IMG/VR virus record: IMGVR_UViG_3300033407_000049
Location: 1-41,454 of that record
Length of the DNA stretch: 41,454 nucleotides
Source: a virus
Lineage: Duplodnaviria; Caudoviricetes
Strand: one strand, 5' to 3'
Below, piece after piece: positions 5,875 to 39,764 of this stretch. The position numbers were made by a program, and so were the translations under genes. Each line of letters opens with the position of its first letter. Position 1 is the first letter of the stretch. The notes beneath the pieces were generated by a model, which was given only the letters and a program-made list of their open reading frames with translations, ran no database searches and was not told the origin of the DNA.

Positions 5875-5926
5875 TTGTCCTTTACCATAAGATGTGCTAA
5901 GTTAGGCAAAATCTATGGTAAAGGAG
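5875..5926 (+). promoter_or_regulatory. RBS-sequestering hairpin with embedded sigma70-like promoter for the intron endonuclease
   Basis: TCCTTTACCATA (5878-5889) is the exact complement of TATGGTAAAGGA (5914-5925), which covers the AAGGAG RBS; TTGTCC (5875-5880), 17-nt spacer, TAAGTT (5898-5903) with extended -10 TG. Confidence 0.65.
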
Positions 5927-5931
5927 CACTT

Positions 5932-19040: not shown

Positions 19041-22000
19041 CTATTCGCCCAAACCGGAACCGAGTTTGCTGAGCAGATCGATATACAGTACGCCCCCGAC
19101 ACTGGAAGCGGCTGCGGTTCCAGCCGTACCGATATTCTGGAAAAGGCCCTTGGTGACCCCGGGAATCGAGTTGATGATGTTATCACCCACTCCGGTTGCC
19201 GAACCCAGCAAAAAGACGGACAGTGCGGTAAAGGGTGCATCCAGCAAGACATTCTTGATATGCTTGAGGACCCGGAGCTGGTACTTCGAGAAGAAGACCA
19301 GACCAATCGAATTGGCGTATTCTATGGATTTGTGTGTCGGTAAGTCAAAGTTTATAAACTTGTCGACTACTGTCGCCACCGCATCCCGATGTTCCATGCC
19401 CTTCTTCTGGGTGAGGTGTTTGTACATGACGTAACGCCCGACGTAGTCAGTCATCTTCACCGCATTGTTCATCATACGAAAACCTTCGGTATCCTGGGTC
19501 ATGAAAAGGACCCGGATGGCTTTCTCCATCTTAGCCGGCATCTTCTTCAGCAGCGTATCCAGGCCCTTATCCAGCCCGTAAGTATAGGGCGACTCGTTCT
19601 GGACGGTATCCACGTCATCGACAATGGAGGGCAGCAGTCCTGCCTCGATCATTGCCTTGGAAGGATTCCTTGCCAATTCGTCTTCCAGCCGAGCAATATT
19701 CCGATCCAGCACTTTGAGCTGCTGGGCTTTATCCACTGCATTGATGCTTTCCTTGGCCGCCAGGATGTTTCGCTGGATGGTGGCGGAAGTAAACTTCTGG
19801 TGCAACGACTGGTAGAGCAGGGCGCTGTTGATCGCTTCCCGAGAACCTTTCAGGATCTCATGGATCGGAACCCCGTGCGAGAGCAACAAGGCGATGTTGC
19901 TCAGGTAGTTGCCGTGGATAACTTTCAAATTACGCACCACGATATTACTCTTGGCCAGGCTGGTTAACTGGGTAAGGAATTCTTCACCTCGTTTGGCTCG
20001 TACCACAGCTCGACCGACTTGTTTATCTTTGCGCATCTGCGCCGAGTCGGTCGCCAGGTCATTCAACGAACTCTTGTAGAAAGGATTATCCCAGCCTAAA
20101 GCGAAGGTCAGCACCTCTTTGACCGAGCGTCCGATCAACTTCTGCTCGGAACTGTTCTTGCTGAAGACTTCCGTAATGCTGTATTTATTCTGTCCGAAAG
20201 CCAGGGTGATCATATCCCGACTGACCATCATCCCGTCGCGTCCCCAGACCGATTTGATCTGGGCGCGCATCTTGTCTGGCAGCCGGAAGTAGATTTCTCG
20301 CAGATCCTTATCTGTCGAGGTCGGAGAAATATCGACGAAGTCGAGAGGATACTTCTCAAACTGCGCATCGTAGAAATCCTTCAAGGCGGAGACGACTTCC
20401 TTGTTCACTACAGGAGTCATCTTCTTGTCCACGATCTGGCTGGCCATGGCGCCAAGGACCGCATCCACTTCGGAGAACTGTTGCAGGACGGTATCCTTGG
20501 TATGCTCGTTCATCATGTAACGGGTACCCAGCATTCGACCTTTGTCGTCGTAGTGCGGAATGACATAATTTTTGGCCCCGGTCGGAACATAAGGCTTGCG
20601 GGGGGTACTCTTGTACATCTTCTCCAGCGTGGCCTGCACAGTAGCCATCAAATGCTTCTCGTTCTGTTCAGCCTTAGCCGGCGCCGTGATAAAATTACCG
20701 ATCTGTTCCTGGACACGAAGAGCATCCGAACCCTTCTTGGTATTGGTGGTCAGCGAGGTAATCCCCGACTGAAGCGGATTGATCGTTCCGGTCAGCGACT
20801 TGAACATATAGATATCTTCTTTAACCAGATCGTTTGGATCCCTCTGAATGGGCGATTGCTCCATGGTGTAACCCATGCGGGTAAAGCGGGCCTGATCATG
20901 AATCGTGCCCTGCTCGTACTGCACTCGATCATTGAGGATCTGTTTGATATAGCCCTTCTGCATCTTGCCCGGCTGGTTATGAAAGGTTTCCTTGAGGGCT
21001 TCGGCTTTGAGCAGATTGTGCTGCACCAGGATATTTTCAAAACCCTGCCAGTTGTCCTGCATCAGCTCCACCAGGATCTGTCGATCCCGGGTCGGTACAT
21101 AGCGCAGCGAAGAAAGGGTCGCCAATTCATCGATAATGGTGATTGCCTTGGTGAGATGTTCTCCCTTCAAAGTCCCTGCGGTTTTCAAGCCATCCATCAC
21201 CGCAATGTTGTGGGCATTCAGCAACGGTACACCGTCGGCACGACGGGCGCCGTGGATCATGTAATAACCCAGATCGTCAGCAGCCTTTTCGAAGAAATGA
21301 CGGTGAGGACGCAAGGCCGGGTCGTTGAGCAGTTGCAGCATCAGGGCCGCAATCCGGTCTTCCCGGACCTGCTCACTACCTACTAGATCGATCAGCACAT
21401 CCTTGCCGGTACTATCCAGTAAAGAACTCAGATCGGTCTTCAGGCCGACCCTGGTGTAGACCTCTTTCTGTTTGGCCGTGACACCGGGCTTCAACCAAGA
21501 ATTAACCTCTGCCCGGATACCATCGGCTACCTCCACCTTGGCGGTATCGAGCACCCGCTTACGCCAGCCCAGCATTTCATGGAAGGTCTGTAGCCGAGGC
21601 GTCAAACCGCGTACCTCACCCATTACACTGGCCATAAAGCCCTCAGTACCATCCTTGTCGTTCATCCAGTTAAGCGCACGGCGGGTCTGGTAGGAGAGGT
21701 AGTTATCCGCTTCGTGTAGATCGCTGACCTTGAGGACGAGCTGACCAACCTTGCGGCTCTTGATGATCTTGGTGGCTGTCTCCTTGACCTTGTCGTCAAC
21801 TTTAATACCGAGTGCAGCCACTTTGTCAGACCCCTTGACGAACGTGGCGTAGATGCCCGATTTGGCCCTTACGTCGATCTCGGACAAAGCACGAACCAGA
21901 TTCTCCAGCTCGACATCCGCTTGGGTGGCATGCTGCTGTTTGTAGAACTGGGTATGGATAAAATCCATGATCTTGTTGAATAGATTAACCACCGACTGCT

Positions 22001-25000
22001 GGATGTTCTTTTCAAAGACACCGAACAAAGCGGTGCTCTGTTTCTTCGGCGGAATCTCCAGGGTCGCCAAGGCCCGCTTGAAGTTCTCGTTGGTTAAACC
22101 AAAGGCAAGGAATTCCGCGACACCTCGGTTGCTACCATCTGTGTTACGATCAGGGGCGAAGATATACGCCCAGCGTTCTTTGGCGGCCAGCACTTCGAAG
22201 GAATTGTTCGGATCGGTAATATCCGCTTCGGGATCGTTCATGAACACGCGGAAGGCGTTGGCGCCGTAGGCTGTTTCAAAAGTATCCCGGGCCAGCTCGT
22301 ACAGATTGGTAGCTTGTCCGCGCAGATAGGGCGACAGCTTGTAGCCACTTTGGATAATATGGTGGACGATCTCGTGAGCGTAGACTTCCCCTGCCGACAT
22401 TCGGATGCCGTGTCCGAGCATTCCCGACTTGGGTGCCGTGGAGAGTTGCTGGGTCTGCAACCAGATCTTCTTCTCTTCGCCGACATAGAGACCGTGGGTT
22501 TCCTGGTCGATCTTGTGCGTGCCGATAAAGAGCTGTATCGGTGTCATGACCCGGGCCACGATGTCGTTCATCACCCGGACCAGATGATTTTTATGATCGG
22601 GCGATACCGCCACACTGCCGTAACCGGCCTGGGCATCTTGCTGCAGAACCGTCTCCAGAACTTCGGCCACGTTCAGAGCATCAACCTTGGTGGTATTTGG
22701 ATAATCCGCTTCCAGAGGTTTCCCCGGGCTTTGCTGACTGGATCCCTGGGTGTCCGAATTCTGTTGTGCGGCCTCACCGTCCTTGCGGTCTTTCAGCCAG
22801 GCAGCGGTTGCCATGACGTTGTCCGCATCCACTGCTGTCACCGTATCTCGGTTGACACCCAGGACCGTATCAGCGGTTATGTCCACGCCTTCCGGATCGT
22901 AGCCAAAACCAGAGTTGGAGTATTGAGCCATCCTGGTAACGTAGGGCATCAGGGCCTTCTTGTTGTCCGTTACCTGCTGGGCAATATCCTTGGCTTGCTC
23001 ACCAATTTTTATAAGGGCGTCTTTGACTGCCTGTTGATAGCCAATCTTGGATAGCGCACTCTTGATTGCTCCAGGTAAGCCGGTCTTGTAATTACCGGAA
23101 GCACTGGCTTCTTGGGTAATACTTTTGATCTGTTTATCAAGGAAAATGTCCCGAGTTTCCGGATCGGGATTCTTACCGATAAAATGCGCTTCGGTGATTA
23201 GGTCTGCTGCCAGTTCCTTTTCAATGGCGCGTTCCTTGATCAAGGAGTCCAAGACCTCTTCCGACTTGATTCCCATTTCCTGGGCCATTTTACGCGCTGC
23301 CGTCAGAGTGCTTTCGTGCATCTTGACGATCTCTTCACCCATGCTGTAGCTGTTCATGATGCGAAAGAATTCTTGATTGGCTTGTTTTCCCACGATTCCG
23401 CTGTCAGTAATTCGGTGACTGAAACCATCATGGTTATTGAGGATATCGATATCCAGTCCCATCAGATGATTGGCTATCATTGAATCCAGCATGTGAATAA
23501 TACGGATAATCGGTGCCACACCGGGAGGATCCAGAAAAGGAATCCCTTCAGGGGTACCCTTGTGTTTCACCACAGTACCATTTTGATAGTTCTGCTCTAC
23601 TGCTGATTTCTTGGCGAAGAGTTTATCTTTGCCGGAAGACACCAACTGCAGGTAACTCGGATTGTCCTCGCGGTTAATCGGAGTCGGAATCTTCGGCATC
23701 AGCGGCTCCAGTTCCTCCAGGATCTGGGCCAGTTCCTTTTTGGTAAGCTGTTGCAGCTTGGGAGACTTGCGAAGGATTGCTTCATCCTTTGGATGGAGTT
23801 CTCCCTTCTGTACGCGCAATGCAGCCAATGCAGCCCGCACCTTACTCTCCAGTTTGGCTTCGACTTTGGCTTTTAGCATAGTGTTGTACATCACCACGGA
23901 AACATTGATCGCATCCAGTAAAGTCTTGCGGGCTTCGATGACCGGCGCATAAACGATATTGACTGCTTCACTCATCGCCTTGCCGTAGGTAGCATTGGCT
24001 GCGGTTTCAATCGCGGCAATTTCAAGATCCTTGAACTTGAACTTCAGCAGTTCATCGATGTTGAGAGCGTTCTCGGGTGTCAGATACTTTTTGATATCGT
24101 GAACTTCCTTGCCCAATAGGACGTTGATATTTTTCAGCAGCTTGTCCAGCCGCTTCAGTATTTCGCTATTGGTTGGCCGATCGGCGGGGCTCTCTTCCAG
24201 CAGGTAATCCTGGGCGATCTTTTCGATCTTGGCGTAAATGCCATCGTTGATCAGATCGACATCGGCAAAGAGTTTCGACTGGCTGAAGAGTCCGGCACCG
24301 AAAGTCGTCTGCATGGTGCGTGGTTTGGAGAGATTGCGGACGATCTTATTGATCACCCCACTCTCGTCAGAGAAAGAACCAAGGATTTCACCGATAGCGT
24401 CGGTGACGTCCAGTTGGTAATCGAGCCGATCTTTGACAAAGGAATCCTTCAGCAGCTCGATCTGTTTCGCCCATTCCTGACCCATGCGCTGGTAGGCGTC
24501 ATTGAGGAACCGGTTATCCGGGCCGATCAGGGTATCCAGGTTGGGTGGATTGCGGGAGACGCTGACACCGGCCATGGCCAGTGCCGCCAGTTTCTCCTGC
24601 ATAGCCTGGGCAATTGTTTGTCCCGGCATAGAACCTTTGTTTGACAGCAGCATCATCAACAGCATGGTGGGGCCGTTGCTGACGCCGTCGATCTCTTTGT
24701 AGAGATCGGTGGTGAATGGCTGGGCACTATCCTGGGCGTGGTTCAGATAGCGAGCATACTCCTGCAGTCCCTTAAAACCATGCAGCTTCATGCCACTGGC
24801 TTCCACTCCGACCGCGATGGCCTGCATCAGTTCGGTGGTCATCTCTTTCGTGCGGTCGAATTCCTGCAATGCTTCGATAGCCGGCAGCAGGGCATAGTGT
24901 TTCTTCTGGTCCTTGGCGGAGAGATTCTCCGGATGGTTGAACAGGTTATTCAGGGCTTCTAGTTGGCCCTCTACGCTATTGTACTTGGCTGACTCGATAT

Positions 25001-26675
25001 CCAGGGCTTGCGCTACGGCTTCAAAGAAAGCGCGTTCTGTGCCCTGTTTATCCACGAAGGAGACGATATCGTGTTCCGGAGCAAACGATACTTTCCAGCT
25101 CGACGGTGCGAAGAGATTGCGGATCACTTTGGAGTTCTGTGGATTGATATAGCCACGCATCAGCATCCGCATATTGCTGATAAAGTCACTGAGGATAAAG
25201 AAGGTATTCTTGTCTGCAGCCTTGGCCTGTTTCAGAAACGTCCGGACATGCTTGATGGTCCGGTCCACATCCTTGTTAATACTCTGGACGCTCTTTTCCC
25301 GGGTGAGGAGTTTGCCTGCCATGGACTCCTTACCAAAGATTGTGCCAAAGGCTTCCAGAGCCAGCGGATCGGCGGTCGCTTCATCGGCCACCAAGGCATC
25401 CATCGCTTCGAAGGCGCTCATGCTCGGCGTCGCGGAGGTCCACTCCGTATCCACGTAATTCTGGATATTTTTGTGCTGCTGCGGACTGATCGCTCCGACG
25501 GTACGACCGGCGCGCATGGTCTTGGGCAAGGGAATCTTGCCGAAGGAGTAACGCAGGGTCTGCGGTTCGTTGTTAAACAGCTTTTCAAAGATATCCGGCG
25601 CCAGGTTCAGTCGTTCCTCGATCTCTTCTACCAACGACAAAGGTTTGGCGTTGTCATTGGGATTGCGGCGCAATACCGTGGACGTGATGTACCCACTACC
25701 TTCGCGGGTTTTATGCACCGCATCGCTGTAGAACAGATCGTTATGGGTGACTGGTAGATATTCTTGCAGCTTCTTGAATGCCCCAATAAACATATCCTGG
25801 CGCTCAACCACGCCCATCTGTTCCAGTCCGGCAATCGCCATCAGACCCAGTGACATCTCCAGCCGGGACTTGCCCAGAGCATCGGCATTTTCCGTGGGAG
25901 TAATCGCCAGCCGTTCTAGTACGGTGCGCCCCAAAGCTTTCGCTAGAGACTCAGTATTCGTTCCCAGTCCCTCCAATAGTTCCAGGGTAGCCTTGGGTAT
26001 ATCCGAATCCTTGGGCCAGCCCAGCAGCTCACGCAGCATGTCCTGGGACTGCTCACCCATGGCCGTACGGGTCGCATCATTGCCCAGCCATTCGTAGACG
26101 GTCGCCGAGATCGCTTCTTTAACGGCCGGATCCAGATAGGCCGAAAGAGCTTTGGCATCCGCGTCATGTTCAGCGAAGTATTGGATCATATCCTCATGTC
26201 GGAAAGCCTTGGAAGAGCCTTCCTTGACCCGGAAGATCGCATCCAGCGCCACCGACATATCGGCATCGAAGACTTCATCGAAGTGGTTGAGGACATTGCG
26301 TTCTGCCGGATTCAAAACCATGAACCGGGCCGCTGCCTGGTAGATGCTGCCGGCCCGCTGCACCAGATTCTGCATCAGGAGCTTCAGACCGCCGACGGGT
26401 TTGAATTCGTTCAGCTCGTTGGACGGATCTTCCGGCCTGGAGGTAAACCGGGTAGCCGGTACAGCCTCCAGCAAAACCTGACGGTTCTGTTTATGCTGCT
26501 CCTTGACACCAGTACGGATTGCCTTCAACTGGGCGATGTGCGCTTCCATGGCGACCCGGGCCAGATCCCCTCGGCCCGCTTCCACAGCAGTTTTGACACT
26601 GGCCGGAAGACGGTCTTCGGTTCTTCCTTTGCCGTGGATATTCACGCAGCTTTGCAGCGAGCCTTTGGTAGCCAT
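19041..26675 (-). CDS. virion RNA polymerase (N4 gp50-like): polymerase plus C-terminal domains, 2544 aa
   Basis: MRMLMRGYINPQNSKVIR; motif A EIDGVSNGP; motif B RNLSKPRTMQTTFG; motif C NNHDGF; HEIVH motif; vRNAP-type C-terminus (MIEAGL…DYVGRYVMYKHL…FINFD). Confidence 0.92.
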   Translation of the reverse strand: MATKGSLQSCVNIHGKGRTEDRLPASVKTAVEAGRGDLARVAMEAHIAQLKAIRTGVKEQHKQNRQVLLEAVPATRFTSRPEDPSNELNEFKPVGGLKLLMQNLVQRAGSIYQAAARFMVLNPAERNVLNHFDEVFDADMSVALDAIFRVKEGSSKAFRHEDMIQYFAEHDADAKALSAYLDPAVKEAISATVYEWLGNDATRTAMGEQSQDMLRELLGWPKDSDIPKATLELLEGLGTNTESLAKALGRTVLERLAITPTENADALGKSRLEMSLGLMAIAGLEQMGVVERQDMFIGAFKKLQEYLPVTHNDLFYSDAVHKTREGSGYITSTVLRRNPNDNAKPLSLVEEIEERLNLAPDIFEKLFNNEPQTLRYSFGKIPLPKTMRAGRTVGAISPQQHKNIQNYVDTEWTSATPSMSAFEAMDALVADEATADPLALEAFGTIFGKESMAGKLLTREKSVQSINKDVDRTIKHVRTFLKQAKAADKNTFFILSDFISNMRMLMRGYINPQNSKVIRNLFAPSSWKVSFAPEHDIVSFVDKQGTERAFFEAVAQALDIESAKYNSVEGQLEALNNLFNHPENLSAKDQKKHYALLPAIEALQEFDRTKEMTTELMQAIAVGVEASGMKLHGFKGLQEYARYLNHAQDSAQPFTTDLYKEIDGVSNGPTMLLMMLLSNKGSMPGQTIAQAMQEKLAALAMAGVSVSRNPPNLDTLIGPDNRFLNDAYQRMGQEWAKQIELLKDSFVKDRLDYQLDVTDAIGEILGSFSDESGVINKIVRNLSKPRTMQTTFGAGLFSQSKLFADVDLINDGIYAKIEKIAQDYLLEESPADRPTNSEILKRLDKLLKNINVLLGKEVHDIKKYLTPENALNIDELLKFKFKDLEIAAIETAANATYGKAMSEAVNIVYAPVIEARKTLLDAINVSVVMYNTMLKAKVEAKLESKVRAALAALRVQKGELHPKDEAILRKSPKLQQLTKKELAQILEELEPLMPKIPTPINREDNPSYLQLVSSGKDKLFAKKSAVEQNYQNGTVVKHKGTPEGIPFLDPPGVAPIIRIIHMLDSMIANHLMGLDIDILNNHDGFSHRITDSGIVGKQANQEFFRIMNSYSMGEEIVKMHESTLTAARKMAQEMGIKSEEVLDSLIKERAIEKELAADLITEAHFIGKNPDPETRDIFLDKQIKSITQEASASGNYKTGLPGAIKSALSKIGYQQAVKDALIKIGEQAKDIAQQVTDNKKALMPYVTRMAQYSNSGFGYDPEGVDITADTVLGVNRDTVTAVDADNVMATAAWLKDRKDGEAAQQNSDTQGSSQQSPGKPLEADYPNTTKVDALNVAEVLETVLQQDAQAGYGSVAVSPDHKNHLVRVMNDIVARVMTPIQLFIGTHKIDQETHGLYVGEEKKIWLQTQQLSTAPKSGMLGHGIRMSAGEVYAHEIVHHIIQSGYKLSPYLRGQATNLYELARDTFETAYGANAFRVFMNDPEADITDPNNSFEVLAAKERWAYIFAPDRNTDGSNRGVAEFLAFGLTNENFKRALATLEIPPKKQSTALFGVFEKNIQQSVVNLFNKIMDFIHTQFYKQQHATQADVELENLVRALSEIDVRAKSGIYATFVKGSDKVAALGIKVDDKVKETATKIIKSRKVGQLVLKVSDLHEADNYLSYQTRRALNWMNDKDGTEGFMASVMGEVRGLTPRLQTFHEMLGWRKRVLDTAKVEVADGIRAEVNSWLKPGVTAKQKEVYTRVGLKTDLSSLLDSTGKDVLIDLVGSEQVREDRIAALMLQLLNDPALRPHRHFFEKAADDLGYYMIHGARRADGVPLLNAHNIAVMDGLKTAGTLKGEHLTKAITIIDELATLSSLRYVPTRDRQILVELMQDNWQGFENILVQHNLLKAEALKETFHNQPGKMQKGYIKQILNDRVQYEQGTIHDQARFTRMGYTMEQSPIQRDPNDLVKEDIYMFKSLTGTINPLQSGITSLTTNTKKGSDALRVQEQIGNFITAPAKAEQNEKHLMATVQATLEKMYKSTPRKPYVPTGAKNYVIPHYDDKGRMLGTRYMMNEHTKDTVLQQFSEVDAVLGAMASQIVDKKMTPVVNKEVVSALKDFYDAQFEKYPLDFVDISPTSTDKDLREIYFRLPDKMRAQIKSVWGRDGMMVSRDMITLAFGQNKYSITEVFSKNSSEQKLIGRSVKEVLTFALGWDNPFYKSSLNDLATDSAQMRKDKQVGRAVVRAKRGEEFLTQLTSLAKSNIVVRNLKVIHGNYLSNIALLLSHGVPIHEILKGSREAINSALLYQSLHQKFTSATIQRNILAAKESINAVDKAQQLKVLDRNIARLEDELARNPSKAMIEAGLLPSIVDDVDTVQNESPYTYGLDKGLDTLLKKMPAKMEKAIRVLFMTQDTEGFRMMNNAVKMTDYVGRYVMYKHLTQKKGMEHRDAVATVVDKFINFDLPTHKSIEYANSIGLVFFSKYQLRVLKHIKNVLLDAPFTALSVFLLGSATGVGDNIINSIPGVTKGLFQNIGTAGTAAASSVGGVLYIDLLSKLGSGLGE

Positions 26676-26688
26676 AGAAACGCCTTAC

Positions 26689-26970
26689 TTATTTAGAGGA
26701 GTTCAGGTTGATAACTGCCGCTTCCAGCGCCGCATTGATCATCGAGGTACCGATCTCAATCCCCGAAGATTTCATGTCCATCAAGATGAGATCAAAGGCT
26801 GCCTGGCGTTTGTCTTTACCGTCCGCTGCGGTCATGGTCTGGGCCACAATGGTTACCGCTCTAATGGCCGAACGGGCCAGGATACGTCCACTGTCCGAGA
26901 GAAGCTGTTTAACAAACGGCTGCAGAAAGATCCAGATATCGGAGAGGAAGAACTTCATTTTGTCCCACAT
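26689..26970 (-). CDS. LL-H-type holin-like protein, 93 aa
   Basis: AAGGAG RBS; GKDKRQAAF…INAALEAAVINL signature; close to the endolysin. Confidence 0.6.
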   Translation of the reverse strand: MWDKMKFFLSDIWIFLQPFVKQLLSDSGRILARSAIRAVTIVAQTMTAADGKDKRQAAFDLILMDMKSSGIEIGTSMINAALEAAVINLNSSK

Positions 26971-27071
26971 GGCTTGCTCCTTTTGGTTCGTTTGAAGAGT
27001 CTGGCCAACCAGTCGTCCCAGTTCACCTTGAAGCTCTTTTTGATTATGAGTTTATCCAGGGGCAATTTCAC
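26955..27071 (-). CDS. possible small basic peptide, 38 aa
   Basis: GTG at 27071; overlaps both neighbours and fills the gap; weak RBS. Confidence 0.3.
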   Translation of the reverse strand: MKLPLDKLIIKKSFKVNWDDWLARLFKRTKRSKPCGTK

Positions 27072-27345
27072 TCTTGCCCGCCTTCTCGATCTTGTGGCCG
27101 ATACCGATGCCTTGCAGTCCCGAGCAGACGCCGTAGATGCCGCCCATGAAGGTGGCGTAGGCCGTTTCAATCGGCACTTCTGGAAGACCCTGATCAGGAA
27201 AGGAGACGCTGATAAAGCCGACGAGTCCCGCACCCACAGCAACCAATCCAGCGATAATCTTGCCGGCTGCTCCGGCGTAAGTCTTTTTACCATTAAGCTT
27301 CCTGCCGATGAAAGCCAGGAACTGTTTTAACATAAAGTTCTTCAT
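27052..27345 (-). CDS. holin candidate, two TM helices, 97 aa
   Basis: ATG 27345 with GGAG RBS; LNGKKTY followed by two hydrophobic helices; directly downstream of the endolysin. Confidence 0.65.
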   Translation of the reverse strand: MKNFMLKQFLAFIGRKLNGKKTYAGAAGKIIAGLVAVGAGLVGFISVSFPDQGLPEVPIETAYATFMGGIYGVCSGLQGIGIGHKIEKAGKSEIAPG

Positions 27346-27355
27346 AAGTGCTCCG

Positions 27356-27946
27356 TCAGAAAGAAGTATCGAGACGCACCAGCCAGCCGGGAATATATCC
27401 AGGATCGAGCTGCTTGTAGTGCATGTAGGCTTCGCCACGTAACGCAGCATGGAGAGCCAAGGGGTAAGGACAGGTCCGGATGACTTCGCCGGTCAGAGGA
27501 CCAATTTTGCCGTCTACCAGTAACGGTTTACCGTGCATCATCTGGACAATGGCCTGGCGCCACTTGGCTCGGCGCAGTGGCAGGACTTCACCCAGACAAA
27601 CGACGTTGACCGCCCGTTGCAACATCTTTGCAGCACCGCCCACTCCGCAGTTCACCGCCAGGTCGTAGAAACGACAGGCCAGTTCAGGCGCTTTATCGGA
27701 GAAGCGATTGGCTCCAGAGGGTAGCCAGTAATCCCGAAAATAAATGGCTCGCGCATCATTGATGGTCAGGCTCTGGATATCCAGTAGTGGGTAGGCTTTG
27801 GCCGAAACACCGTACTGGGTTCCTTTAAGGGTCCCCTTGCCCACCTTACCTCCGGTCCAGTTGCCCGGATCGTTGGGATCCATCGACGTCTTGCCCTCGT
27901 GCCGCAAGGTGAAGGAGAATGCTTCTTCAAATACACCGAATTTCAT
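27356..27946 (-). CDS. endolysin, glycoside hydrolase family 108
   Basis: HEG…DPNDPGNWTGG…GTQYGVS…AIYFRDYW…DLAVNCG…LQRAV…VDGKIGPLT…GWLVR. Confidence 0.9.
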   Translation of the reverse strand: MKFGVFEEAFSFTLRHEGKTSMDPNDPGNWTGGKVGKGTLKGTQYGVSAKAYPLLDIQSLTINDARAIYFRDYWLPSGANRFSDKAPELACRFYDLAVNCGVGGAAKMLQRAVNVVCLGEVLPLRRAKWRQAIVQMMHGKPLLVDGKIGPLTGEVIRTCPYPLALHAALRGEAYMHYKQLDPGYIPGWLVRLDTSF

Positions 27947-28431
27947 AAAGGAGTCCCCGAAGGAATAGATTGCACGAGTTTCACTAAACCATGCAATATG
28001 GACCAGACTTGATTAGCCAAGAAGTAGACCATTGCCAGAATTACTGCTACCTGAACTTTGTCAAATTTTCCGTCTACATTGGGGGAAAGTGACTTACGCA
28101 ATTTGCATGATTCTGGGGAAGGGTGACCTACAAGATGCGTTTGTACTTTCTGATCCAGTTCCCTCATAACATTTTCCAGATGAGCAGCTTCTTCTCGCTG
28201 TATCTTGTATAGAGTATCGATATCCCGCTGATTGTCCGCCGTGCGATCCGCTAAAGCCACCAACCGTTCTTGTTGTTTGGCGATGTCGATCAAAGCACCA
28301 ACCATTCGCTTTTGGTCATATCTGAACTCTTGGACACTTTCGAGTAATTGATTCAGTATTGGACCTTTGTCGCAAGCATCAGCAGTCATAGAAAACCCTG
28401 TCGTTGTGTAGGAGAAAAGGGTGATCGTCAT
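27943..28431 (-). CDS. coiled-coil protein with C-terminal TM helix (lysis-cassette protein)
   Basis: ATGA overlaps at both ends; heptad-rich N-terminus, TM segment VQVAVILAMVYFLANQVWSIL. Confidence 0.65.
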   Translation of the reverse strand: MTITLFSYTTTGFSMTADACDKGPILNQLLESVQEFRYDQKRMVGALIDIAKQQERLVALADRTADNQRDIDTLYKIQREEAAHLENVMRELDQKVQTHLVGHPSPESCKLRKSLSPNVDGKFDKVQVAVILAMVYFLANQVWSILHGLVKLVQSIPSGTPL

Positions 28432-31352
28432 TTGCCATTGAAACAGTTGAGAATACTCTCTGCTTCAAGTATTTCTTGGGTCAGGGCGATCATAGCTTCG
28501 TTGTAGGTTTTCTCTACTTGCTGCCCGTCTATATCCGTAAACTGTATTTTCAAATATCCAGGATCAATCGGTTCAGCAGATATATCGCCGGAAACAGTAG
28601 CAGTATTGTCTGCAACAGTCGATTCTTTTATTTCCTTTGTAGGGCTTTTTGCATCCTCGGTTTTCTCGACAACCGGTGAGGTCTTGTTGGATTCCTCAGT
28701 CTCACTTTGGGTTACCGGCGTTACATCTTCTATCGACGAAGGCTCTACCGGCAAGGCCGCCGCTTCTTCGGTTGCCAGAGCTAGCTCTTCCTGAAAGACC
28801 CGGACTGCCTCAGGGCCGTATTTGACATTCAGTTGCTTTTCTTTTTGCCGCAGAATGGCGGGTGTCGTCTTTCCCTCGGCCAGCGTTGCGACGGCATTCC
28901 GGGCATACTTCCGAGTTTTACTTTCCACCACGGGATCTAGCGCAACAGGTTGGCTCACAGCCGGCGTAGTTGGTGCGACCGAGGTGTTGGCCTGCACCGG
29001 AGTCGTGCGAGCGGTCAGCAGGCTCTCAGCGAAGGTTACTTCCTTCTGCAGCGCGTCCGCTTCATTAGCAACCAGAGCTACCAGCTTTCCAGAGAATTTA
29101 TGGATCTTGTAGTTTTTCCCCTGGATCTTCAGATGGATCGTGGGACGCGGTTCGGTCTTCGGATCGAAGACGATCTGGGAAACCTTGTCAAAGGCTTCGG
29201 TGATCTGCTTCATCTTGTCCTGATGGGCATCGTGGAACTTGGCGAGTTCTTGGATCTGTTTCTTAGCACCCTCGACGTTATTGACCGCAGGATTAAGGAA
29301 ATTGGCGATCGCCTGCCGGTACGAGTCGATACCACGGAAATCCTTGTCGCCACGGTAAACATCTTCGTGAACGGCTTCAGCCGTTTTACCGTCGGTCACA
29401 GGACGCTGCTTGATCGCCGACTCGATCACCTGACGGGCGGCAACCGTTTCCTTTTTGGCTTGCAACAGAGTCCGTTCGACTTCGGGCAGATCGGGCTTCG
29501 CCAGGCGCTGATCCAGTTGCTGAATACTCAAACTGGCTTTACTGGATCCGTAGGTTTCGGTGGTATGGTTGATGACCTCTTCGGTGGTAGCAGACGCCAC
29601 ATCGAGGGGAGTCGTTTCCTTCTCGGTACTGACCTTGTTGTTCAGTTCACGGATGACCAGCAATTGCCGGGACATCTGTACCGCAACCTCGCCCTTTATT
29701 TCATGCTGCTTGACCAGGGCCGCCATCTGCGCTTTTTCCTGCAGAGTCTTCTGGTCACCCTTGTCCCTCAAGGCGACAATTTTCTCTTCGGTCGCCAGCC
29801 AGTCGGCTTTGACCGATGCATAGAGTTCTTCGGCCTTCACCGCCGCTTCGGGATTGTCGGCAAACTTCGCCAGCGAGGTGATGGCTTTTACCGGACTGTA
29901 ATTCTCGTGCACGGGATCGGACCATTCTTCGATCCGGGCATCGCCAAGTGCAACTTCGGCAACTTCTTTCTTGAAGCCATGCTCATTACGCGCTTCCTTC
30001 TGCGCCGCTGCTTTCTCGGTATCGGTCTTGATCGCTTCGACGGCTGCCTTGGATTCAGGTGTAGCGGTCAACAGCTTCTTGGTGAACTCACCGGTCTTGT
30101 TGGCGGCCAGCTTGGAACCAAAGGCCGCCGTGTTGATGCCGGCACCGATCGGGCCGGCTCCTACGCCACCGAGAGTTTCATAGATGAGATCCTCGGCTTT
30201 GATTTCTTCACCGATACCGCCAGTAGCGGCGGCTTCGGACAGGGGTTCACTGGCGACTTCTCCGGCATAGCTGGTTACGGCACTGCCGAGTTTCTTTTTG
30301 AAACTGCGTTCCGCCAACAGCTTGCTGGCCCCGGCGTTGATGAAGTCTTCGGTCAGGGTTTTAAGAGGGATTCCTTTTTCCGCTGCCCGCGCCGCGAGCA
30401 TCGCCCTGCCGACGTCGTCCACGCTGCGCATGGCCGCCTGGCGGGCTGCTCGCGTCGGGAGTGTAGCCAGCTTGGAGAAGAAGCCGCCCATGGCCACATC
30501 GGCCGCTCCCAGAATCCCGCCGTACTTCAGCGCATCGGCCTGGTACTCTTTGATCAGACTTGGATTCTGATCCATGAACATCTTGACGTTGGCCGGCGTG
30601 TAAGCGATCCCTCTCTCGTCCAGACCGCCCCGGATCTTTTCAACCATCTTGGCCGAACCGGCATCGGCTGCCTCGGCCGTGAACATGCCGGCCGCGGTAA
30701 TGAAAGGAGCAGCCGGAGCCGCCCATCCACCGGTCGCCGCGGTAGCGCCGGCTGCCACCAGACTTCCGGCCTTGGCGCCAGCACCCATGGAAGCCATAGA
30801 GCCAATCGACTGCGCCGCGACATCCAGCACCCCGCCGGGATTCTTGACGATATCCCCGACCAACTGCGCGGATGCCTTCACGCCCCCCAGGAAACCGCTC
30901 GCATCGGTGCGCTCGCCCCAAACCTTCATGTCGTGGGCGAGCTGCTTCATTTCGCGGGTGAGGGGTGCGGCATCTTCCTTGTTCAGATAATTGGCGACCT
31001 GAGTCGGGTAGTCATTGTCTACCTGGCCCACCAGATCGTCCACCATTGGGATGCGACTGGCGGCAGACAGCAACGAACGCTTGAGCGTGTCTTTCAGATT
31101 TAAGGCGAAGCCCTGGTTATCGGTGGTGGCCTGATCGGCTTTTCTTTGCTGATTGAGGGGATTATCGGGACTCTTGAGTTCCCGCTCCTCGATCAGTTGT
31201 TTATGGGCAGTCCGATACAATTCCTGAGTAGCCGCGTCCGCTTTCAGGAAAGACTCGTGCTTACCCATCGTCTGTTCAAAGTCCGCAGCGATCGTGGCTT
31301 CCCGATCGGCAGCCGGCGCTTTCGGAGTGGGTGTTTCAGTCTCGACTGCCAT
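28428..31352 (-). CDS. separately encoded N-terminal (ejection) region of the virion RNA polymerase, 974 aa
   Basis: Occupies the gp50 position right after the gp51 homologue; Gly/Ala-rich hydrophobic segment; ELAKFHDAHQDK resembles an N4 vRNAP N-domain motif; 974+2544=3518 aa, close to the ~3500 aa of N4 vRNAP. Confidence 0.75.
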   Translation of the reverse strand: MAVETETPTPKAPAADREATIAADFEQTMGKHESFLKADAATQELYRTAHKQLIEERELKSPDNPLNQQRKADQATTDNQGFALNLKDTLKRSLLSAASRIPMVDDLVGQVDNDYPTQVANYLNKEDAAPLTREMKQLAHDMKVWGERTDASGFLGGVKASAQLVGDIVKNPGGVLDVAAQSIGSMASMGAGAKAGSLVAAGATAATGGWAAPAAPFITAAGMFTAEAADAGSAKMVEKIRGGLDERGIAYTPANVKMFMDQNPSLIKEYQADALKYGGILGAADVAMGGFFSKLATLPTRAARQAAMRSVDDVGRAMLAARAAEKGIPLKTLTEDFINAGASKLLAERSFKKKLGSAVTSYAGEVASEPLSEAAATGGIGEEIKAEDLIYETLGGVGAGPIGAGINTAAFGSKLAANKTGEFTKKLLTATPESKAAVEAIKTDTEKAAAQKEARNEHGFKKEVAEVALGDARIEEWSDPVHENYSPVKAITSLAKFADNPEAAVKAEELYASVKADWLATEEKIVALRDKGDQKTLQEKAQMAALVKQHEIKGEVAVQMSRQLLVIRELNNKVSTEKETTPLDVASATTEEVINHTTETYGSSKASLSIQQLDQRLAKPDLPEVERTLLQAKKETVAARQVIESAIKQRPVTDGKTAEAVHEDVYRGDKDFRGIDSYRQAIANFLNPAVNNVEGAKKQIQELAKFHDAHQDKMKQITEAFDKVSQIVFDPKTEPRPTIHLKIQGKNYKIHKFSGKLVALVANEADALQKEVTFAESLLTARTTPVQANTSVAPTTPAVSQPVALDPVVESKTRKYARNAVATLAEGKTTPAILRQKEKQLNVKYGPEAVRVFQEELALATEEAAALPVEPSSIEDVTPVTQSETEESNKTSPVVEKTEDAKSPTKEIKESTVADNTATVSGDISAEPIDPGYLKIQFTDIDGQQVEKTYNEAMIALTQEILEAESILNCFNGK

Positions 31353-31366
31353 CCATTACCTCTTAA

Positions 31367-33415
31367 TTATTTTCGCTGAAGGTTCATGGACTTTGGCAAC
31401 TTATTGTTCTCGCTTCCCCTGTTTATCGCGTTTTTACGTTTATACCAATCGCGGATGTTTCCTATTAATTCCGCGCCACCGTTATCGGTAGAATCTTTCC
31501 ATGGCTCCCTACTGCCGGCAAACGCTGCCTGTTCTGCGAGCTGTGCGCGGAGTTTTTCTGCTTTAGCTTTTTGCGCATCCAACCGGGCCTTTTCCTCTGT
31601 TGCAGCTTTATCCCGCTGCGCCTTTAATTCTGCGGCCCTCGCCACGATTTCATCGGGAGTTGTTTCGCTCGCAGGTGTACCGGGAGATTTCTCTCCAGGG
31701 GCTTCCTTGGCTACCCTATTCTTGGCCAGCCATTTTGCCTCGGCTTCAATGCCTTCTTCCCAGGAAGCAAAAGTGACCTCTTTGCCCGTATCATCGTTAC
31801 CGACATTCCCGGGGTTGCGGGTACGCGCGCCTTTACCGGTTGTTCCAAAAGAGGAATCCTGCTGCATCATAGCCATCAGCAACTTAGGCTCTACATCGTA
31901 CTGTTTGGCGTATTTGCTCACCATGGCGCCGGTTATCGGACTGTTCGGGGCGGTAGCTTGAATATACTGGTCAATCTGCGCAACCGACTGCACAGGCGGC
32001 ATAGTATCAAAGAGTTCCTGCACTTTGTTTTCGTGGTTGGGGTCGGTTGCATGGCGGCTGATGTCTACCCCGGCAATGACGCGCGGATTCGCCGATGTTG
32101 GCGCGTTATCCCCGTACACTGTCTTACCGCGACCCAATCCCACCCCGTCAATGCCAGGACCGGCGCCACCAAAGTTCTCTTGCGCTCCGGCGTCTCGCAG
32201 TTCTTTACTCAGCCGCAGCAGTGTTTCTTCGGCAGCCTGTTGCGCGGCAGTAGCCTCCTGACGCGCGGACATAAGCTCCCCGGAAGTAGCGAAGCGATTC
32301 TTGGCGTTCTCCCCGAGTTCTTTGGCGCGTGCTTCAATGGCACGCATGGCGTCTGCCGAAATGTCGTTGCCCCAGGCCCGATCGCCCGGGTAGTGTTCGG
32401 AAAACGCCTGGTATAGGGCAGCACCGGCGTCCTTCGCCTCCACCTTACTATCCAGCATCTCCTGATGAATCCGTGCGACCTCTTTCGCATCACTCTTGGG
32501 TGCCCAGCCCTCCACCCAGTTGGTGACCTTTTTCCCGATGGCTTGCGGCACTGAGGCACCAAAGTCGTTACCCAGAACGGTTTTCACCTGGGCGTACGCA
32601 TCATCGCTAATGCCGGTTCGCTGCAAGGCAATGTCCTGCTGTTCCAACTCGGCCACTCGATCCAGTTTTAGCTGAATCTTGCGCTTTTCCACGCCCTCCT
32701 GCAAAGCCACATAATGCTTGTGTTTCTCTTGCTGATCGGGGGTCAGCAGCAATTGTTCTTCCAATTCTTTGGTCAATTTACGAGTTTCGGCAACCCGCTC
32801 TTCTTCCGGCAGTTCAGCTACCAAGGCTTTGATCGCCATCCGGCCTACAGCCGGTCCATTGAGTTGCACCTCTTCAAAAAGACTGTTGGTGCGGGCAGAA
32901 GATTCCCGTGTTTTCTGGATTTCGTAATCCTGGAATCGTGTCGCATTGGTAGCGGCAAAAGACTGATTTGCCGCAGAAACGAGCGATTCCGGTGCTCCCT
33001 GCTCACGCAGACGCTGTTCAAAAAGCTGGCGCTGCTTTAACGGATCAGCGGCTTCGGTCAGTGCTTCGTTGGAAGCCAGGTTGATTGCGTTGGTTTCCAA
33101 CTGCTGCTTCGTACCGGCGTAGGTTTCCGTCAGTTTATCCATATTGATCGTGTTGCCAAACTGCCGAGTGACGGCCGTTTTGTCCAACGGATCGACACCC
33201 AGTCCCTCTTTTTTGAGCTTGTTCTGCAGATACTCCTGCATGTTGAGGGTATTGGTTTCCTTGTAGGACTCCTCGGTCTGTTTAAAGAGTTCCTCGACGC
33301 CCTTGAAAGCTTCACCGATACTCCTGCCTACCGCTTCTTGACCGGCAACCAGGGACTTCATATCCGGCGAATCAAAGCCGCCATACTTTTGGTAAAACGC
33401 ACCAGTGTTTGCCAT
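31367..33415 (-). CDS. internal virion/ejection protein (N4 gp51 position) with lysozyme-like domain
   Basis: Helical, no Cys seen; YAKQYDVEPKLLMAMMQQDSSFG…NPGNVG…FASWEEGI; gene order. Confidence 0.75.
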   Translation of the reverse strand: MANTGAFYQKYGGFDSPDMKSLVAGQEAVGRSIGEAFKGVEELFKQTEESYKETNTLNMQEYLQNKLKKEGLGVDPLDKTAVTRQFGNTINMDKLTETYAGTKQQLETNAINLASNEALTEAADPLKQRQLFEQRLREQGAPESLVSAANQSFAATNATRFQDYEIQKTRESSARTNSLFEEVQLNGPAVGRMAIKALVAELPEEERVAETRKLTKELEEQLLLTPDQQEKHKHYVALQEGVEKRKIQLKLDRVAELEQQDIALQRTGISDDAYAQVKTVLGNDFGASVPQAIGKKVTNWVEGWAPKSDAKEVARIHQEMLDSKVEAKDAGAALYQAFSEHYPGDRAWGNDISADAMRAIEARAKELGENAKNRFATSGELMSARQEATAAQQAAEETLLRLSKELRDAGAQENFGGAGPGIDGVGLGRGKTVYGDNAPTSANPRVIAGVDISRHATDPNHENKVQELFDTMPPVQSVAQIDQYIQATAPNSPITGAMVSKYAKQYDVEPKLLMAMMQQDSSFGTTGKGARTRNPGNVGNDDTGKEVTFASWEEGIEAEAKWLAKNRVAKEAPGEKSPGTPASETTPDEIVARAAELKAQRDKAATEEKARLDAQKAKAEKLRAQLAEQAAFAGSREPWKDSTDNGGAELIGNIRDWYKRKNAINRGSENNKLPKSMNLQRK

Positions 33416-33427
33416 GATGGCTACTCC

Positions 33428-33991
33428 TTAAAGGGTTTCTTTTGCGCCCCAGCGAGCCATGGTATTGGCCACACCCTGTTGCATACCTTCGCTGCCTATC
33501 GCGTATCCTTGCGCCGACAGCCGACGTTCCTCCCGACTGGATAAGGCTTCGTTGGCACCCTTGGCCGCGTTGGTAAAGTCGGTCTTCATCATGTCCATCT
33601 GGTCGCTGTAGTAGCTCTTCATGAACTTGTTCATCTTGGATTGTTCCATGGCGTTATAAACATCCAGGCCCACCTTGGCTACTCCAAGACCGAACTCAGC
33701 GTTCTTCATCCAACCACCTTCAGCACCAGGTAGTTTGTCTTCGCCTATTTTGAGCTTGTTGTCTCCTAAAGAGAAATTGCTGTAATTGAGGGTAGGGTTG
33801 CCGAAGTCAGTACCCGGATGCGTCTGCATTCCAGGCAAGGCCATATTGTTTGAGACTGCCGGAGACTGATAATTCGCCGCATTCCAGCCACGCATATCGC
33901 CTACACCGATAGAGTTTATGCCGGGTGCAGCAAAATCTTCCGTCATTAAAGAGAAGCGCTTCTTTGGTGCGAAACCATTCGGAATGGCCAT
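33428..33991 (-). CDS. small internal virion protein (N4 gp52-like)
   Basis: Gly-rich with an amphipathic segment then coiled coil; gene order. Confidence 0.7.
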   Translation of the reverse strand: MAIPNGFAPKKRFSLMTEDFAAPGINSIGVGDMRGWNAANYQSPAVSNNMALPGMQTHPGTDFGNPTLNYSNFSLGDNKLKIGEDKLPGAEGGWMKNAEFGLGVAKVGLDVYNAMEQSKMNKFMKSYYSDQMDMMKTDFTNAAKGANEALSSREERRLSAQGYAIGSEGMQQGVANTMARWGAKETL

Positions 33992-36366: not shown

Positions 36367-37083
36367 TTACGTGATGTTGATACCTTGTTTGGCTTTCGCC
36401 ATGACGGTAGCAATTGCCGCATCGTCAATCCCCGCGGGGTTGGCCAGAGCACCATCGGTTGTCTGCCGTACCGACCAGGTATCCACCATGATCTTGGCCA
36501 GTTTCTGTTCGGCATCCCGATCGAAGCCATCGGTCTGCTTCTGGAAAAGGTTCTTCTGTTTGCCGATAACACCGGCTACGGTACCGGTCGCTACCAGGTC
36601 GCTGACCTGGGCTAGCTCGGTTTCCCGCTTCTGGTTGAGCAATCCTACCTCGGCATCGGTCTTGCTGGACAAGGAAGCCAGTTCACCAATCGCCCGGTTG
36701 GTGTCATTGTTGGCCCGGGTGGTATCATTGACTGTACGGGTGTTGTCGTTGACGGTGGCTGCCTGCATGGCGACGATCTCGGCCGTGGTCTTGCTGGTTT
36801 CGTTACCGGTTCTTGCCAGTTGCGCGACAATCTCCGCGTCGATCTTGCGGGTATTATCCTCTGTTTGCGCCGTCGAGTTGGCAATGTCGGCGGTGATCTT
36901 GGCGTGGCTATCGATCTGGCCCAGATCCCGATTGATGATCTGGTTCAGTTCGTTGGCCGTAGCTGCCCGCAGACGGTCGATTTCAGCCCGGACGCTACCC
37001 AGTACCGGCAAACGCCCCACCGGTGGCGTGTAGGTCAAGGACGGGTCATAATGAGACGATGTGCTGAGTGGTTCGGTAGCCAT
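36367..37083 (-). CDS. structural protein, C-terminal part of N4 gp54-like
   Basis: GVIGKQKNLFQKQTDGFDRDAEQKLAKIMVDTWSVR motif; own AGGAG RBS. Confidence 0.75.
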   Translation of the reverse strand: MATEPLSTSSHYDPSLTYTPPVGRLPVLGSVRAEIDRLRAATANELNQIINRDLGQIDSHAKITADIANSTAQTEDNTRKIDAEIVAQLARTGNETSKTTAEIVAMQAATVNDNTRTVNDTTRANNDTNRAIGELASLSSKTDAEVGLLNQKRETELAQVSDLVATGTVAGVIGKQKNLFQKQTDGFDRDAEQKLAKIMVDTWSVRQTTDGALANPAGIDDAAIATVMAKAKQGINIT

Positions 37084-37097
37084 GGAAGCCTCTCCTA

Positions 37098-37556
37098 TTA
37101 ACCGATCGGCGGGATCGGGGTAATTTCCTGGGGAATGAAATTAAACCCAAGGCCAGCCGGAATACAGTCGTCCGTCTTGGTCAGCTCGGTCACCGTCTGC
37201 TGCCGAATCAACCCGATCTGGGCGTTGATCTGGTGAACCTGCTGCTCGTTCAGCAAAAACTGGGTCGCCGTTTGCAGGACAGCCGACAGCGCCCCCAGAT
37301 ACACCGTGCTGTACTCGTGCCCGGTAATCCGTTGGGACTGGAACTCTTCCTGGAGATGGAGTTTGACTGTCTTCATCAATTGATCAAAGACGCCAGAACC
37401 GTCCAACTCGGTGGTTGTTAGCGTCTTGAGAGGTGTAGCCAGGACTTTCTTGTCCGTGCTGCCTACGCCGTTCTCCTGATTGGTCAAATCCAGGGTGGTG
37501 GGTTTCCAGCCACTGGGACTGAGATCTACTGCCTGCAAACGTATCGACATAACCAT
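37098..37556 (-). CDS. structural protein, N-terminal part of N4 gp54-like
   Basis: LTT…GSGVFDQLMKTVKLHLQEEFQSQRITGHEYSTVY…QFLL motif. Confidence 0.75.
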   Translation of the reverse strand: MVMSIRLQAVDLSPSGWKPTTLDLTNQENGVGSTDKKVLATPLKTLTTTELDGSGVFDQLMKTVKLHLQEEFQSQRITGHEYSTVYLGALSAVLQTATQFLLNEQQVHQINAQIGLIRQQTVTELTKTDDCIPAGLGFNFIPQEITPIPPIG

Positions 37557-38333: not shown

Positions 38334-39764
38334 TTATACCCGGGCGACAGTCTTCACTACTGCGATACGCTCGCTGCGCAATTTCATAAAGCCGTAGTAC
38401 CACTTGATCGACATGAATCCGGTTTCGCCGTAAGGATCGTTGGCGTAGGATTCCGGTGATTCGGGCTTGGCGTGCTTGATGTTGAATTTGACCGAGTTGC
38501 CGCTGGTCTGGAAACCGATGGTGGTGAACGAAGCATCTCCAACCACCAGCATCGGAAAGACGTCGTACTTACCATTGGTCACGCGGTAACCGGCATTAGT
38601 GCCTTCCGCCGCACCAGCCCCGGCATAGTGCATCATCTCGGGGACCACGATCAAACGGAACTGGCCAACAGTACCAATCTCACCATTGATCGGCGAACCG
38701 GCATCCGCATAATGGGCTACCGAAATGAACGCCTGATTACCGAAATAATCTTCCATACGTTCCACGGTCTGGGTCAGTTCGGAACCAATGAACATTGCCC
38801 GCCCGGCGCGCAGTACCCGGGTATCCACCATACGGGAACCGGAAATAACCTTGGTGGTTTTCGGACAGCGGTTGTTGTCGAGTTCAACGGACAAACGAGC
38901 GAAGTCGCCGTAGGTGACTTCGGTAACCGCACCGGTGGCACCCGTCAGTTCCGCGTCTTCAGTGGCAGCACCGGAGAAATAGACGACGCCGGCTGCGTTC
39001 AACAGGTCGATCTGCAGCAGATCCTCGGTGATCTCGTTGGCGCCGAAGATCATCTCGCGGTTGATGTGCATTTCGAGTTCAGCATCAGAATCAAAGTCCA
39101 CAGATTCTTTGGTGTACTCGTCGAAGAAACCGTACTTCTCCAGGGTACCTTCCAGCTCGACGCGGGTAAAGCCCACCCGGTTAACCCGACCACCGGTTTC
39201 GGAGAGCACCGGCAGTTTACCAACGATGGTACCGACGTCCTTGCTGGAACCGTACAGGTTACCGTAACCAGGTAGCACAGTGGCACCCAGATTCAACGCC
39301 ACAGCGGTGTCTTTCTTGGTGGCATTGAGATACTTGGCAGTGAGCGGACCCACCAGGGTCAAGGTAGCAAAACCAGCACCGGCCGAATCATCAGCCCCGG
39401 CAGTCGCTACCAGGGTAGCACCGACGTTATCGTTGATTGCGGTGGCAGCAGCGGCCTTGGAAGCATTGGCCCGGGTCATGATACGAGCCGGCCAGGTGAT
39501 GAAGAACTCGGTGGTGGCGATGGTGATGCCGGAAGCATCAATACCCTGGTCATTGATGTTGGCCTCATCCAACATCGGAACATAGTGATAACGCTTGATT
39601 TTTTTCCCCATGTTCTTCGGCATGGCAGTGACGTCAGCCAGAGGACCGAAGTACATCTCTTTCTTGGCTTCGATCAGGGCCTGTTTAATAAAGTGGTCAA
39701 CAACAATCTGACCACCAATATCAGAGGGCGAACCTCCTGCGGGATCTGCATATTCTCTTGCCAT
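38334..39764 (-). CDS. major capsid protein (N4 gp56-like), 476 aa
   Basis: DQGIDASG, GNLYGSSKD, LSETGGRVNRVGFTR, DPYGETGFMSIKWYYG. Confidence 0.97.
   Translation of the reverse strand: MAREYADPAGGSPSDIGGQIVVDHFIKQALIEAKKEMYFGPLADVTAMPKNMGKKIKRYHYVPMLDEANINDQGIDASGITIATTEFFITWPARIMTRANASKAAAATAINDNVGATLVATAGADDSAGAGFATLTLVGPLTAKYLNATKKDTAVALNLGATVLPGYGNLYGSSKDVGTIVGKLPVLSETGGRVNRVGFTRVELEGTLEKYGFFDEYTKESVDFDSDAELEMHINREMIFGANEITEDLLQIDLLNAAGVVYFSGAATEDAELTGATGAVTEVTYGDFARLSVELDNNRCPKTTKVISGSRMVDTRVLRAGRAMFIGSELTQTVERMEDYFGNQAFISVAHYADAGSPINGEIGTVGQFRLIVVPEMMHYAGAGAAEGTNAGYRVTNGKYDVFPMLVVGDASFTTIGFQTSGNSVKFNIKHAKPESPESYANDPYGETGFMSIKWYYGFMKLRSERIAVVKTVARV

Follow-up and report, generated by a model that had tools for sequence, protein, structure and literature searches.

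Phenylalanine in motif B of a two-gene N4-type virion RNA polymerase is a recurring state that accompanies a histidine ahead of motif C

The DNA analysed here (the window) is IMGVR_UViG_3300033407_000049, a linear virus record of 41,454 nt and a metagenomic fragment that is 55% complete. Its minus strand encodes the virion RNA polymerase (vRNAP) of an uncultured N4-like phage, not as the canonical single chain of ~3500 aa but in two genes, with products of 974 and 2544 aa; the enzyme is a split variant. A first-pass annotation of the sequence had taken the larger product for a vRNAP and pointed to a phenylalanine in its motif B, at a position that it described as a conserved tyrosine and that corresponds to Y639 of T7 RNA polymerase (RNAP). 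It proposed a natural counterpart of the T7 Y639F mutant, which may accept deoxy- or 2'-modified nucleotides or else has another sugar-selection mechanism. The polymerase gene and the residues in question lie as follows:

19041-26675, minus strand: vRNAP, polymerase and C-terminal domains (CTD) without the N-terminal domain (NTD); 2544 aa, one cysteine (Cys10); phrog_2206, 1082 bits
24687-24689, minus strand: motif A, catalytic Asp663 (N4 D559), from the alignment; coordinates by arithmetic from the start of the open reading frame (ORF)
24291-24338, minus strand: motif B (O-helix), R780-x3-K784-x7-F792-G793, Phe codon TTC at 24300-24302, from the profile alignment
23493-23495, minus strand: His1061 (CAC), in an H-x-x-D motif, likely the position of T7 H784 and N4 mini-vRNAP G926, covarying with Phe792, from alignments
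23427-23429, minus strand: motif C, catalytic Asp1083 (N4 D951), from the alignment; coordinates by arithmetic from the ORF start

The assignment of the 2544-aa protein as a vRNAP was upheld by its phrog_2206 match, by its sequence matches in the PDB, which are to N4 gp50 (best E 1e-28), and by structure comparison. An AF2 model of residues 401-1130 (pLDDT 83.6) gave, in Foldseek, ten best matches that are all N4 vRNAP (TMq 0.68-0.70; E 4e-18 at a TMq of 0.70), followed by T7 and mitochondrial RNAPs, so that the predicted fold is that of an N4 mini-vRNAP-type single-subunit RNAP. Profile alignment placed R503, D663, R780, K784, F792 and D1083 on R424, D559, R666, K670, Y678 and D951 of N4 mini-vRNAP, residues named in PMC2784036. 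The catalytic residues R503, D663, R780, K784 and D1083 are all intact, and these include the motif A and motif C aspartates, as the first-pass annotation had stated. The minus strand of 24291-24338 reads R780-N-L-S-K784-P-R-T-M-Q-T-T-F792-G793-A-G; the vRNAP profile aligns R627, K631 and Y639 of T7 onto this same motif, and no other tyrosine competes for the site. The phenylalanine was thus correctly placed at the Y639/Y678 position. With N4 gp50 (PDB 2PO4, 3C2P, 9PNQ, 9PNT, 11FW) the enzyme shares its fold (TMq 0.70), the catalytic residues, CTD homology, the gene neighbourhood and an HExxH-like motif (HEIVH here); identity over the polymerase is ~18%, and N4 has Tyr678 and Gly926 where this enzyme has Phe792 and His1061. 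N4 gp50 is also a single chain of 3500 aa without any cysteine. Viral contigs searched with a single protein yielded no relative.

A Logan contig of run X1 (10,099 nt, depth 46.9) shows 0 differences over 23533-31400, and a further Logan contig covers the His1061 codon. Run X2 contributed short pieces only and was left aside. Because X1 may be the source sample, this agreement tests the assembly and does not stand for a second isolate. Phe792 is confirmed as real.

We then asked how common phenylalanine is at this position. A search of cluster representatives gave 290 proteins at E <= 0.001, and among the best 150 of these 290 the residue is Tyr in 84 and Phe in 62, with the site uncovered in 4, so that Phe accounts for 62/146. 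Contrary to what the first-pass annotation had supposed, tyrosine is therefore not conserved in the family; when motif B is compared across it, Phe is common and not exceptional. A FastTree phylogeny was built from 146 rows in which all three motifs were located (the query, N4, LUZ7 and LIT1 included), with the site column dropped. All 146 carry Tyr or Phe at the motif B site (82 and 64, respectively), with at least 20 changes between the two, 13 of them forced by well-supported branches, against a shuffled expectation of 48. The query forms a Phe tip, and its nearest relatives on the tree have Tyr. Proteins from fetched loci (n = 114) comprise 18 Phe and 96 Tyr, a set biased by having been fetched with alignments from mostly-Tyr clades. 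The vRNAPs of the cultured lytic Pseudomonas phages LUZ7 and LIT1 (Migulavirinae) are single chains that lack Cys and are 22-24% identical to the query. They share with it a Phe where N4 has Y678 and a His at the partner site described below; their branch is distant and consists mostly of Phe enzymes, whereas the relatives around the query are Tyr+Gln. On these alignments Phe792 is an ordinary, recurring O-helix state in N4-type vRNAPs. It is also already known, because the natural Y678F state was noted in 2010 in the legend to Figure S2 of Ceyssens et al. (PMC3715699).

The residue at the position of His1061 covaries with that at the motif B site. Representatives and loci were merged into 240 rows, from which 23 near-duplicates and 13 short proteins of unjudgeable completeness were removed to leave 204. 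In these, every Phe enzyme has His (71/71), while Tyr occurs with Gln (54), His (51), Gly (19), other residues (7) or a gap (2); across all 240 rows His accompanies Phe in 76 of 77 cases, the remaining one being Phe+Gln. A separate alignment of 62 Phe proteins by hidden Markov model gave 60 Phe+His, 1 Phe+Gln and 1 Phe+gap. The 22 top-scoring proteins, the query among them, comprise 5 Phe+His, 14 Tyr+Gln, and one each of Tyr+His, Tyr+Leu and Tyr+gap; the sister protein (P0002/L016) has Tyr (TAT) and Gln (CAG) where the query has Phe (TTC) and His (CAC). The rule is near-strict: Phe requires His, and Tyr pairs with Gln, His or Gly.

Shared descent was addressed with independent pairs on a tree built without the motif B region and the His region. 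Out of 14 pairs, 9.2 changed in the same direction and 0 in the opposite one (median sign-test p 0.004), and the His1061 column came top of 571 columns (mean 1.25, standard deviation 1.08); thirteen further columns with large raw Phe/Tyr differences were examined and none passed the same test. The His column was chosen after looking, and the p-value alone fails correction for 571 columns; the weight of the evidence lies in the rank among columns together with the near-strict rule. Tyr+His is common and Phe+Gln almost absent, and His therefore probably arises first and then permits Phe. The context of His1061, G-V-A-P...H-x-x-D at 22 residues ahead of the motif C Asp, resembles G-I-A-P...H784-x-x-D787 of T7, 28 residues ahead of D812, and His1061 is likely the T7 H784 site, beside the incoming nucleotide. 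No mention of the coupling was found in the literature searched, and key primary papers lay beyond the reach of that search.

T7 Y639F takes dNTPs (deoxynucleoside triphosphates) as efficiently as rNTPs (ribonucleoside triphosphates), and H784 has been linked to nucleotide selectivity (review, PMC6535458). We favour the reading, at a probability of roughly 55%, that His1061 compensates for Phe792 and that sugar selection is at most modestly relaxed. His1061 would make up for the tyrosine hydroxyl lost at Phe792 and preserve the positioning of the ribonucleotide or of the nascent base pair, and the enzyme would still make ordinary early RNA. For the other sugar-selection mechanism that the first-pass annotation had offered as its alternative, the near-strict coupling of Phe to His1061 is a concrete candidate. 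On the biochemistry of Y678F or of a Phe-type vRNAP the literature searched yielded the 2010 legend alone, key primary papers again being out of reach.

Several observations weigh against this reading or against the findings beneath it. Only two of the eight cultured phages compared, LUZ7 and LIT1, have Phe, the other six having Tyr, and one protein, P0150 (a 1131-aa fragment with 11 Cys), combines Phe with Gln. The His signal leads but is not alone, in that the runner-up (7.9), column 228 of the alignment at query residue 501, two positions ahead of R503, covaries as well, with Asn in 66 Tyr rows but only 6 Phe rows. The match to T7 is faint: a local profile puts T7 H784 on the His1061 column weakly (-3.2 bits, with place and order right), and whole-protein hhalign of the vRNAP alignment to T7 RNAP gave a probability of 0.1. 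T7 H784 mutants retain ribose discrimination. Moreover, T7 Y639F retains H784 and is therefore itself a Phe+His enzyme, yet it is relaxed; Phe+His is not automatically selective, and because this mutant accepts dNTPs the histidine may preserve activity and not sugar selection.

The last of these points leads to an alternative that we consider possible, if doubtful, namely that the enzyme is a natural Y639F-type polymerase with strong relaxation toward dNTPs and 2'-F NTPs, in which His1061 only keeps a Phe enzyme active and the excess of rNTPs in the cell hides the defect. Phe+His is the exact state of relaxed T7 Y639F (PMC6535458), which shares with the query the O-helix Phe, a His at the likely 784 site and a Met in the M635 register (Met788 by motif register); the site aligns with T7 Y639, and the 2010 legend ties Y678 to dNTP discrimination, worded 'possibly' (PMC3715699). 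T7 Y639F is nevertheless an engineered mutant, its relaxation measured, of a protein ~10% identical to the query, and with N4-type enzymes at about that distance from T7 and N4 carrying Gly at the His site, the rules of T7 may not carry over to them. Strong relaxation would also render ~40% of the family (62/146; best 150 of 290) sugar-sloppy, over at least 20 exchanges, although lytic members are thought to depend on vRNAP for early RNA.

We find it unlikely that the residue is no sugar gate at all in N4-type enzymes, with Tyr and Phe nearly neutral and the link to His a packing effect without a role in nucleotide choice. The frequent exchange of Tyr and Phe would fit this, as would the placement of part of N4 motif B on a mobile loop with a second function in autoinhibition (PMC4496689, PMC13492108); but a site limited to Tyr or Phe in 146/146 rows, with Phe lacking His in 1/77, argues that the two are not neutral. 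A sequencing or assembly error behind the TTC codon or the gene split, conceivable for a metagenomic fragment of 55% completeness, is largely refuted and merits almost no weight: the separately assembled Logan contigs agree with the record and span the His codon, the change to His accompanies that to Phe, and the gap between the two genes holds 1752 nt with endolysin and holin and recurs as a split in 18 other contigs.

The split was recognized from the position of motif A, at residue 663 as compared with 1556 in N4, so that ~900 residues are missing from the polymerase protein. Their counterpart lies upstream, beyond a lysis cassette:

28428-31352, minus strand: detached vRNAP NTD gene; product of 974 aa with one Cys (Cys970) and, around residues 183-292, weakly hydrophobic helices; phrog_2206 positions 198-893, E 1e-17
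28443-28445, minus strand: Cys970, with four residues after it in the NTD protein, where a likely amphipathic helix ends, from the sequence
26689-28431, minus strand: cassette between the vRNAP genes, with a 162-aa ORF, endolysin (27356-27946), a 132-aa ORF and holin (26689-26970); endolysin by phrog_315, E 8e-27; holin by phrog_6918, E 8e-8
26646-26648, minus strand: Cys10, sole Cys of the polymerase-CTD protein, invariant in 20/20 aligned split relatives, from the alignment
31367-33991, minus strand: two Cys-free ORFs of 682 and 187 aa at the positions of the N4 gp51 and gp52 ejection proteins, their identity taken from gene order

A profile of the NTD protein and 14 homologs (15 in total) matches the N-terminal part of many fused vRNAPs, with a best E of 5e-80 and 1e-21 for LUZ7; N4 was not matched by it, nor did BLASTP show significant similarity between the NTD protein and N4 gp50 (best E 0.011), so that homology to vRNAP rests on profiles. 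The alignment of NTD homologs offered no conserved stretch usable as a search query. Two of the homologs, P0162 and P0164, carry a precomputed PF00990 match, and P0162 is labelled as coming from a Deltaproteobacteria bin, a weak hint at the host. Within the cassette the 132-aa ORF had no match and the 162-aa ORF only a weak one (E 0.04). On the tree, split and fused states change at least 11 times, 8 of these forced, a count that is partly circular because the Cys itself served to label 24 of the 40 split rows. The two terminal modules at the junction, searched as profiles, gave no convincing match in fused vRNAPs (best E 0.05), and we therefore see no sign that these modules are fusion remnants. 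In two split-type polymerases, P0009 and P0014, the stretch from the N-terminal Cys to motif A is longer by 200-500 residues. A split intein at the junction was considered and rejected: the terminal segments look helical, no intein end motif was seen by eye, and Pfam gave no match for either protein.

Each half has one cysteine, and the two stand at the facing ends, Cys970 of 974 in the NTD protein and Cys10 of 2544 in the polymerase; the upstream ejection-like ORFs have none. This pattern recurs in relatives. Among NTD homologs, the query included, a Cys lies 2-6 residues from the C-terminus in 14/15, and intact split polymerase genes on distinct contigs have exactly one Cys, at residue 3-12, in 18/18, four of these contigs being near-identical. 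Fused genes (n = 76), by comparison, have a Cys within the first 15 residues in 0/76 and no Cys at all in 66/76. Where the NTD gene was seen at the junction (12 contigs, L096 included) it has a Cys in its last 10 residues in 12/12; for 7 split contigs the DNA fetched did not show this gene. Three contigs (L045, L061, L103) were left out of the split count as being broken inside the polymerase, with no Cys pair and probable frameshifts, and L096 was left out for its short core, although it has Cys4, a Cys-ended NTD and two more Cys. Of the representatives whose N-terminus is short, 30/40 carry a Cys among their first 15 residues; the other ten may be partial, and one of them is L006 with a later start. 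Polymerase ORFs that themselves end in Cys occur in L054 (1143 of 1143), L055 (2549 of 2549) and L096 (729 and 732 of 733) and may mark additional break points that follow this Cys pattern. Cysteine makes up 0.00075% of 191 isolate vRNAPs (PMC11445570), and with one Cys per half the enzyme departs from this no-cysteine rule of N4-type vRNAPs.

The N4 NTD inserts into membranes and has been proposed to anchor the polymerase, by way of a linker, once ejection has taken place (PMC13434306; PMC13492108). We think it quite probable that the NTD protein docks through its C-terminal helix on the helices at the N-terminus of the polymerase protein and that a Cys970-Cys10 disulfide then restores one continuous chain, or tether, for packaging and injection. 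An intermolecular disulfide is the simplest reading because a single Cys is kept at both cut ends of proteins otherwise nearly free of it; a shared metal site, or a separate modification of each end, is also conceivable. With comparable confidence we extend this to the family: several N4-like lineages would encode their vRNAP as separate pieces, even where lysis or tail genes lie between these, and would restore the injectable chain through one intermolecular disulfide.

Two described systems bear comparison. Alteromonas phage vB_AmaP_AD45-P1 is a cultured phage with a two-polypeptide vRNAP, its stop PCR-verified and two protein bands seen (PMC3821669), and it too bears a single Cys in each half, where the two ends face each other (Cys2479 of 2481 and Cys4 of 1409); we count one per ORF, whereas PMC3821669 gives two in one ORF and its authors take the cysteines as a sign of a non-injected protein. 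The break there falls between polymerase and CTD, in adjacent genes, and the enzyme is Tyr+His, as against a break between NTD and polymerase and Phe+His here. In the pre-ejectosome of cyanopodophage A4, a C-terminal helix of gp27 inserts into gp26 and Cys1715-Cys5 form a disulfide seen by cryo-electron microscopy (PMC12002296), so that again one Cys lies in the C-terminal helix of one protein and the other near the N-terminus of the next; that bond is observed, whereas the one proposed here is probable. The likeness is one of geometry, and the A4 pair is not known to form a vRNAP. Split vRNAPs in print are those of AD45-P1 and pSb-1, which a survey attributes to gene calling or read-through (PMC10654107). 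We found no mention of paired terminal cysteines in split vRNAPs in the literature searched, most subscription papers being outside that search.

The remainder of the window is consistent with this assignment. The plus strand carries N4-like replication genes and the minus strand the structural genes, and core genes with PHROG matches follow in N4-like order: DNA polymerase, gp42, primase, Sak4, single-stranded DNA-binding protein, capsid and gp53/54/55/57/58-like genes, the gp labels being taken from gene order by comparison with N4. These are core genes of the N4-like Schitoviridae. The fragment, at 41.5 kb, compares with Schitoviridae genomes of 59-80 kb with terminal repeats, and such repeats were not seen. 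Among the 35 proteins scanned in this incomplete record there were no RNAP II genes, portal or terminase, and no early region was recognized among its genes. N4-type vRNAPs are packaged in the virion, are injected and transcribe from hairpin promoters. A pattern resembling such promoters occurred 3 times, compared with 9 times in the reversed control, and sigma-70-like sites were about as frequent as expected by chance (11 against 10.3).

At the gp51 and gp52 positions, the 187-aa ORF matches phrog_2646 weakly (E 0.011) and the 682-aa ORF matches none. Residues 498-567 of the latter, the Cys-free gp51-position protein (31367-33415, minus strand), resemble a glucosaminidase (PF01832 at E 4e-6, which falls short of the curated cut-off) and may form a wall-degrading domain in the ejection tunnel. 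The N4 gp54-position virion structural gene (36367-37556, minus strand) consists of two consecutive ORFs, which match phrog_2050 at positions 49-142 (37098-37556) and 130-299 (36367-37083). The major capsid protein (38334-39764, minus strand) has 476 aa as against ~400 in N4, with no Pfam match, and the extra length suggests an insertion. On the plus strand two ORFs (456-1418 and 2080-3678), each matching phrog_17, make up the DNA polymerase gene, with an HNH endonuclease ORF (1418-2080) between them; the HNH ORF within this gene (456-3678) is possibly an intron or homing element. Another HNH endonuclease (5875-6528, plus strand) directly precedes the primase, whose listed ORF aligns to its profile from position 74 onward only. 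In run X1, contigs of depth 3-4 and ~85% alike at 20457-20772, 20940-21272 and 26539-26975 show a related phage in the same sample.

Phenylalanine gives no reason to single out this enzyme, and the cultured LIT1 and LUZ7 carry the same Phe+His pair. What the coupling offers is a two-residue test of ribose against deoxyribose discrimination in N4-type polymerases, and a two-residue handle for the in vitro synthesis of 2'-modified RNA. Should the doubtful Y639F-type reading prove true, the Phe+His class, which makes up ~40% of the family, would offer a natural source of Y639F-like polymerases. The split with its paired cysteines is the more surprising feature. It bears on the structural question, current in 2024-2026, of how a 3500-residue enzyme threads a tail of 30-35 A and is tethered to the membrane by its NTD, and AD45-P1 provides a cultured test case. 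If split forms always rebuild a covalent link, then continuity of the chain would be required for ejection, and the no-cysteine rule would gain a functional exception.

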